From assembly GCF_044324785.1 (NCBI RefSeq), contig NZ_CP172127.1: DNA of 64,000 nucleotides. One strand, 5' to 3'. The notes under the pieces are model-generated. The model did not search any database. It was not told where the DNA came from and saw only the letters and a program-made list of their open reading frames with translations. The position numbers and the translations under genes were made by a program. Positions 28,520 to 28,610 of the stretch are shown here, one piece after another. Source of the DNA: Escherichia coli (GTDB taxonomy: Bacteria; Pseudomonadota; Gammaproteobacteria; Enterobacterales; Enterobacteriaceae). How positions within the stretch are numbered: position 1 is the first letter of the stretch; the number at the start of each line of letters is the position of its first letter.

Positions 28520-28610
28520 GCTAGATGGTTTCGCAATGAACTGTTAATAAACAAATTTTTCTTTGTATGTGATCTTTCGTGTGGGTCACCACTGCAAATA
28601 AGGATATAAA
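28520..28610 (+). promoter_or_regulatory. thrS translational operator (tRNA-Thr anticodon-arm mimic in the leader)
   Basis: Hairpin gtgatc-tttCGTgtg-ggtcac at 28569..28589, with a CGU-containing loop about 20 nt upstream of the thrS ATG; ThrRS autoregulation through this leader is established in E. coli. Confidence 0.55.

Follow-up and report, generated by a model that had tools for sequence, protein, structure and literature searches.

[quoted passage not shown] The thrS operator is already known and well supported, there is no novelty in the element itself, and nothing contradicting this explanation was found. The first-pass annotation of this DNA had described a thrS leader hairpin with a CGU anticodon-like loop and had read it as the threonyl-tRNA synthetase (ThrRS) operator imitating the tRNA-Thr anticodon arm. 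The description was borne out by folding, which puts CGU in a 7-nt loop, and the operator reading is supported by the identity to the K-12 sequence, by covariation, by the conserved GU of the loop and by the model developed in the literature.

The gene that follows the hairpin is thrS (28611–30539, +), the coding sequence of the 642-aa ThrRS, which is both product and repressor; it was recognised from the ORF list, from the match to the E. coli ThrRS structure 1qf6 over residues 1–642 and from the RefSeq annotation. The ORF is full-length in the 1qf6 alignment, so that the protein possesses both the domain that binds the anticodon and the N-terminal domains on which regulation depends. Among the structures matching the thrS product is also PDB 1kog (residues 242–642, the catalytic and anticodon-binding part), which we take to be the complex of ThrRS with operator domain 2. 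Of 5426 complete E. coli genomes, 5425 have a match at thrS to the 601 nt around the start codon, the best of them at 99.2% identity, and the gene order is E. coli-like, with ydiY, yniD and espL1/arpB on the opposite strand upstream and thrS-infC-rpmI-rplT-pheM-pheS downstream.

RNA folding resolved the hairpin into two parts, a 6-bp lower stem and a 7-bp upper stem. In the MFE fold of 28560–28600 the lower stem is formed by 28562–28567 with 28593–28598 and the upper stem by GUGAUCU (28569–28575) with GGGUCAC (28583–28589), the two being separated by a 1-nt/3-nt internal loop in which U28568 faces CAC (28590–28592). The apex is the 7-nt loop UUCGUGU (28576–28582), where CGU at 28578–28580 (−33 to −31) occupies loop bases 3–5, i.e., anticodon positions 34–36. 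This fold has a dG of −11.3 kcal/mol, accounts for 51% of the ensemble and reaches z = −2.57 versus shuffles, and the identical hairpin was recovered when either 28480–28615 or the whole presumed leader 28449–28640 was folded; the first of these two foldings had been proposed as a check in the first-pass annotation, and it gave a stable hairpin presenting CGU in a 7-nt loop. The size of this loop depends on the wobble pair U28575–G28583, which is invariant in 81/81 leaders of the comparative set described below; since this pair never varies, covariation says nothing for or against it. The upper stem ends at 28589, 21 nt ahead of the A of the ATG (28611), in agreement with the approximately 20 nt estimated earlier, and the arm ends at 28598 (−13), directly adjoining the SD sequence. 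Thus the location proposed in the first reading was right, while its drawing of the stem and loop was not, as the halves gtgatc and gggtcac are unequal (6 versus 7 nt) and the 9-nt loop tttCGTgtg is replaced by a 7-nt loop in the fold. As for the extent of the element, the hairpin itself had been seen, while the lower stem reaching −13, domain 4 and the split ribosome-binding site had been missed.

The leader in the window is the same as that of K-12 MG1655 from about −230 to +28 (258 shared positions) save one base, T for C at 28445 (about −167), which lies outside the operator; therefore it is the same RNA as the K-12 thrS leader used in experiments. The K-12 operator described by Springer, Romby, Ehresmann, Moras and co-workers is accordingly the same element with the same four-domain layout, showing no difference from the window within the operator itself, and the comparison with the published operator domains suggested in the first-pass annotation, made with the operator as described in reviews, gave the same four-domain layout (PMC11088916, PMC9976931, PMC3858243). 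In the E. coli population 5351 of 5425 genomes have the 120-nt operator at 99% identity or more, and the remaining 74 carry a thrS leader allele at 90–95% identity. In this allele, represented by E. coli 1296KP (locus L085, 401–521 aligned with window 28494–28613), the domain-4 loop reads GACUGUUG; the changes fall in domain 4, where those in the stem are partly compensatory, and in the linker, leaving domain 2 and the SD untouched.

For the comparative analysis the 80 closest of the matching loci were collected by a ThrRS protein scan with one genome per species, all of them from Enterobacterales (Salmonella to Proteus), and these 80 thrS loci together with the window gave 81 sequences aligned over −55 to +3. 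Across them the hairpin is 96.0% paired and its upper helix 99.8%, with compensatory changes in 8 of the 13 pairs. The observed covariation score was reached by none of 500 shuffles, and in a control where the 3' partners were slid by 1–3 columns the pairing fell to 33–49%. RNAalifold returned the same domain-2 structure unprompted from the alignment, and a covariance model built from it matched this site alone in the 64-kb window.

In the loop columns G-32 and U-31, the equivalents of tRNA G35 and U36, are invariant (81/81); the literature uses these two designations for the bases in question, and they agree with the coordinates used here. C-33 is found in 77 of 81 leaders, and the other four, from the Lelliottia/Enterobacter group, have U at this position, which gives UGU, also a Thr anticodon. 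Position 37 is a purine in all 81 leaders. The U33-equivalent base 28577 (−34) varies (U in 60, A in 13 and G in 8 leaders), and thus the tRNA mimicry is not complete. It should be added that G35 and U36 are among the bacterial threonine identity elements (PMC9976931).

Since no tRNA genes were found in the window, the tRNA-Thr sequences for comparison were taken from K-12. [quoted passage not shown] The stems are unrelated in sequence and differ in build, 7 and 6 bp with an internal loop in the operator arm versus 5 bp in the tRNA. Unlike tRNA-Thr(CGU), the operator arm has a loop closed by a U–G pair and a variable U33 equivalent, has no acceptor arm and undergoes no aminoacylation.

The sequences on both sides of domain 2 complete the operator. 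Domain 1 (28599–28613, +), recognised from the sequence and the ORF start, comprises the SD UAAGGA (28599–28604), a spacer and AUG (28611–28613); TAAGGA is present in 73 of 81 leaders, and UAAGGA is the sequence quoted for the thrS mRNA (PMC3858243). Domain 3 (28538–28561, +) is a single-stranded A/U-rich linker, mostly unpaired in the folds except for a weak 4-bp hairpin, with an A+T content of 79% (−73 to −50) compared with 51% in the window and a median over the 81 leaders of also 79%, and the split ribosome-binding site has its upstream half in the U-rich 3' part of this linker. In the thermodynamic model the MFE structure pairs 28482–28492 with the SD region 28601–28610, giving an SD unpaired probability of 0.07; the fold in which domains 2 and 4 form with SD and AUG free lies only 3.1 kcal/mol above the MFE, and the thrS SD has been reported as unpaired (PMC3858243). 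The pairing of 28482–28492 with the SD was considered as a conserved feature and rejected, with duplex energies in the 81 leaders no better than those of shuffles (median z 0.36; 1% below −2).

Domain 4 (28494–28537, +) is the second anticodon-arm-like hairpin, identified by MFE folds, covariation and literature, as a second anticodon-like stem-loop has been described for the operator (PMC9976931, PMC11088916). Its apical loop is an 8-nt AUUUGUUG (28512–28519) with UGU, another Thr anticodon, at 28515–28517; in 27 leaders sharing this loop class the domain is 82.8% paired, 12 of 17 pairs showing compensatory changes, and an NGU-loop hairpin is found near −100 in most of the 81 leaders. Two classes of the loop, which lies at about −103 in the other loci (L003–L082), can be distinguished. 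The first one, N-N-N-[U/C/G/A]-G-U-N-G, with NGU at bases 4–6, occurs in E. coli, Salmonella, Yersinia and Erwinia/Pantoea, while the second one (class B), A-R-R-G-U-R-N-A, for example AGAGUGAA, has NGU at bases 3–5 and is found in Citrobacter, Klebsiella, Enterobacter, Serratia and Proteus, so that in the 8-nt loop the conserved GU is displaced by one base. Across the taxa UGU, CGU, GGU and AGU all occur in domain-4 loops. With rather low probability, domain 4 may be read by the second ThrRS subunit in either of two registers, or may serve in some lineages for something other than strict anticodon mimicry.

Two further observations concern this part of the leader. A (U)GUGUACC(A)-like repeat is present at 28484–28491 and 28496–28503, the first copy immediately before the 5' strand of the domain-4 basal stem and the second inside that strand, and similar motifs lie at about −125 and −113 in other loci; the two copies are identical in Salmonella arizonae, Atlantibacter and Sodalis, class-B leaders contain GUACA up to three times, and the repeat might permit alternative pairings with the domain-4 3' strand. 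Also, in a record titled E. coli SCPM-O-B-8794 (locus L003, upstream of 1147) the encoded ThrRS is 99% identical to that of the window, and the leader beyond about −50 is Citrobacter-like, with the class-B domain 4 UUUCGC-AGAGUGAA-GCGGGA. This mixed leader suggests either leader recombination or a mislabelled record.

Upstream of the operator a possible extended −10 promoter element TGtTAACAT (28434–28442, +) was seen by eye with low confidence, and the block GTGTTAaCAT / GTGTTATCA appears, again by eye, to be conserved in many Enterobacterales leaders. A scan for the sigma-70 consensus promoter gave nothing at the place expected for the thrS promoter and did not report the 28434–28442 block. 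Such a −10-like block would put the thrS transcription start tentatively near 28449 (about −162); the length of the thrS leader is reportedly approximately 160 nt.

In the published model the operator consists of four domains, among which ThrRS binds domains II and IV and the ribosome binds domain I together with the 3' part of domain III (PMC11088916). [quoted passage not shown] The N terminus of ThrRS clashes with the 30S platform, and tRNA-Thr competes with the operator (PMC7373986), while the thrS ribosome-binding site is bipartite and interrupted by the hairpin, and S1 helps to dock the thrS mRNA with its weak SD (PMC3858243). ThrRS binding, 30S exclusion and relief by tRNA-Thr have been established for the identical K-12 sequence (PMC11088916, PMC7373986, PMC3858243), and by this analogy they would be expected for the leader in the window. 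In such a mechanism the ThrRS homodimer would bind the two anticodon-like arms, one per subunit, by means of the domains that bind the tRNA-Thr anticodon. The ribosome would require the segments on both sides of the hairpin, the SD in domain 1 and the U-rich 3' portion of domain 3, with S1 probably aiding the docking, and the N-terminal part of the bound ThrRS would clash with the 30S platform, resulting in competition between repressor and 30S and in blocked initiation. Finally, tRNA-Thr would compete for ThrRS, and the translation of thrS would thus follow the tRNA-Thr/ThrRS ratio.

The same elements can be interpreted as purely architectural, in which case the hairpin brings the U-rich segment next to the SD and enhances translation with no ThrRS sensing at all. 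The split of the ribosome-binding site around the hairpin and the 79% A+T of the flanking linker are in line with such a role (PMC3858243). So is the block CACUG (28590–28594, −21 to −17), composed of the internal-loop bases on the 3' side plus the two lower-stem bases that follow, which is invariant in 81/81 leaders, begins 20–23 nt upstream of the ATG in each of them and is not accounted for by anticodon mimicry; this invariance exceeds the structural requirement of domain 2. However, the architectural interpretation leaves unexplained why positions 35–36 are invariably G and U (81/81) and position 34 only C or U, and why there is a second NGU-loop hairpin. In K-12, mutations of the loop bases equivalent to G28579 and U28580 are reported to abolish repression with basal translation unchanged. 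The replacement of the Thr anticodon-like triplet by a Met triplet switches the control to MetRS (PMC7373986, PMC9976931), and the enhancer role is already a part of the accepted model and no replacement for it. Taken without ThrRS sensing, the architectural role is therefore very improbable.

Control at the level of transcription, whether by an intrinsic terminator or attenuator, a T-box riboswitch or a leader-peptide attenuator, is even less probable than that. It could be favoured by the neighbouring pheM/Phe_leader attenuator (31905–32029) and by the fact that Gram-positive thrS genes use T-boxes. Against it, the hairpin is not followed by a U-tract after its end at 28598 and runs into CCACUGCAAAUAAGG, no terminator-like site was found in 28050–28700, and the Rfam search of 26000–34000 at E ≤ 1 returned only Phe_leader, with no T-box (RF00230), Thr_leader or other family. 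Nor was a short ORF with many Thr codons noticed in the leader on non-systematic inspection. Transcriptional control by such an element is thus already contradicted by the sequence, and the translational operator remains the preferred explanation.

The motif in itself is not rare. Defined as a hairpin of at least 7 bp with CGU at positions 3–5 of a 7-nt loop, it is found at two places in the window, 28578 and 23676, compared with 2.4 expected for 64 kb and both strands from first-order Markov simulations, so the CGU-loop hairpin by itself is not beyond chance, and its rarity was dropped as an argument; the expectation per 60-nt leader is about 0.001. The second and only other site in the window, CUCAUCA-UCCGUCA-UGGUGAG at 23667–23687 (+), was considered as a functional element and judged to be a chance occurrence, being far from thrS, inside the mechanical ORF 23490–23867 and within the background count. 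The hairpin at thrS is beyond chance because of its position, the covariation in 80 other species and the identity with K-12. The notion that it is a chance structure without function, for which the chance rate of such hairpins in the window and a z of only −2.6 in single-sequence folding might speak, has a practically negligible probability in view of compensatory changes in 8/13 pairs and 96% of cells paired across 80 species, an invariant loop GU and a fixed CACUG-to-ATG distance (20–23 nt) in 81 leaders, and a sequence identical to the experimentally defined operator.

The thrS operator may be compared with several known systems. The mRNAs of yeast AspRS, with a tRNA-Asp anticodon mimic, and HisRS likewise provide synthetase autoregulation via an anticodon-like stem-loop in their own mRNA (PMC9976931, PMC6542539, PMC7373986); however, they are eukaryotic, have another architecture with involvement of the N-terminal extension in the case of AspRS, and are not homologous to the thrS operator. 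The T-box in Gram-positive thrS leaders also couples thrS expression to the tRNA-Thr status via the leader RNA, but it binds uncharged tRNA and controls transcription termination, whereas in the thrS operator a protein binds a tRNA mimic and translation initiation is controlled. Ribosomal-protein operators of the L20/S15 type are likewise based on self-repression via a mimic of the main RNA ligand near the ribosome-binding site, and the neighbouring rpmI-rplT operon in the window is presumably a case of such an rRNA-mimic translational operator. The ligand imitated by the operators of this type is rRNA and not tRNA, and in the case of S15 the ribosome is trapped, in contrast to the competition between ThrRS and the ribosome (PMC3858243).

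Several features of the surrounding region were noted in addition. An intact 632-aa ORF (26193–28091, −), annotated as the EspL1 type III effector in the closest E. coli strain, is divergent from thrS, while K-12 has the arpB pseudogene where the window carries this intact espL1/arpB ORF, so that the strain behind the window is an E. coli other than K-12. The infC gene starts at 30543 (+), 3 nt past the thrS stop, with the unusual ATT (ATT AAA GGC GGA AAA...), the known IF3 autoregulatory start, and due to this start the mechanical ORF list gives a shorter GTG ORF (30651–31085). Downstream of rplT the Phe_leader family (RF01859) matches at 31905–32029 (+) with 74.4 bits and E 1.2e-11. The match corresponds to the attenuator of pheST with its pheM leader peptide, expected at that place. 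A mechanical 106-aa GTG ORF (28521–28841, −), antisense to the thrS start and operator, is very likely spurious.

In summary, the thrS-infC-rpmI-rplT-pheST region of the window is that of an ordinary E. coli and its regulation is intact, which the operator only confirms. The thrS operator has no Rfam family, as a result of which automated RNA annotation misses it, and the 81-sequence alignment with its covariance model could seed such a family. The conservation pattern of the domain-2 loop in Enterobacterales fits the tRNA-Thr identity rules and may be regarded as a natural “mutagenesis,” in which the equivalents of G35 and U36 never change, position 34 may vary as long as a Thr anticodon results, and U33 is dispensable. 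[quoted passage not shown]
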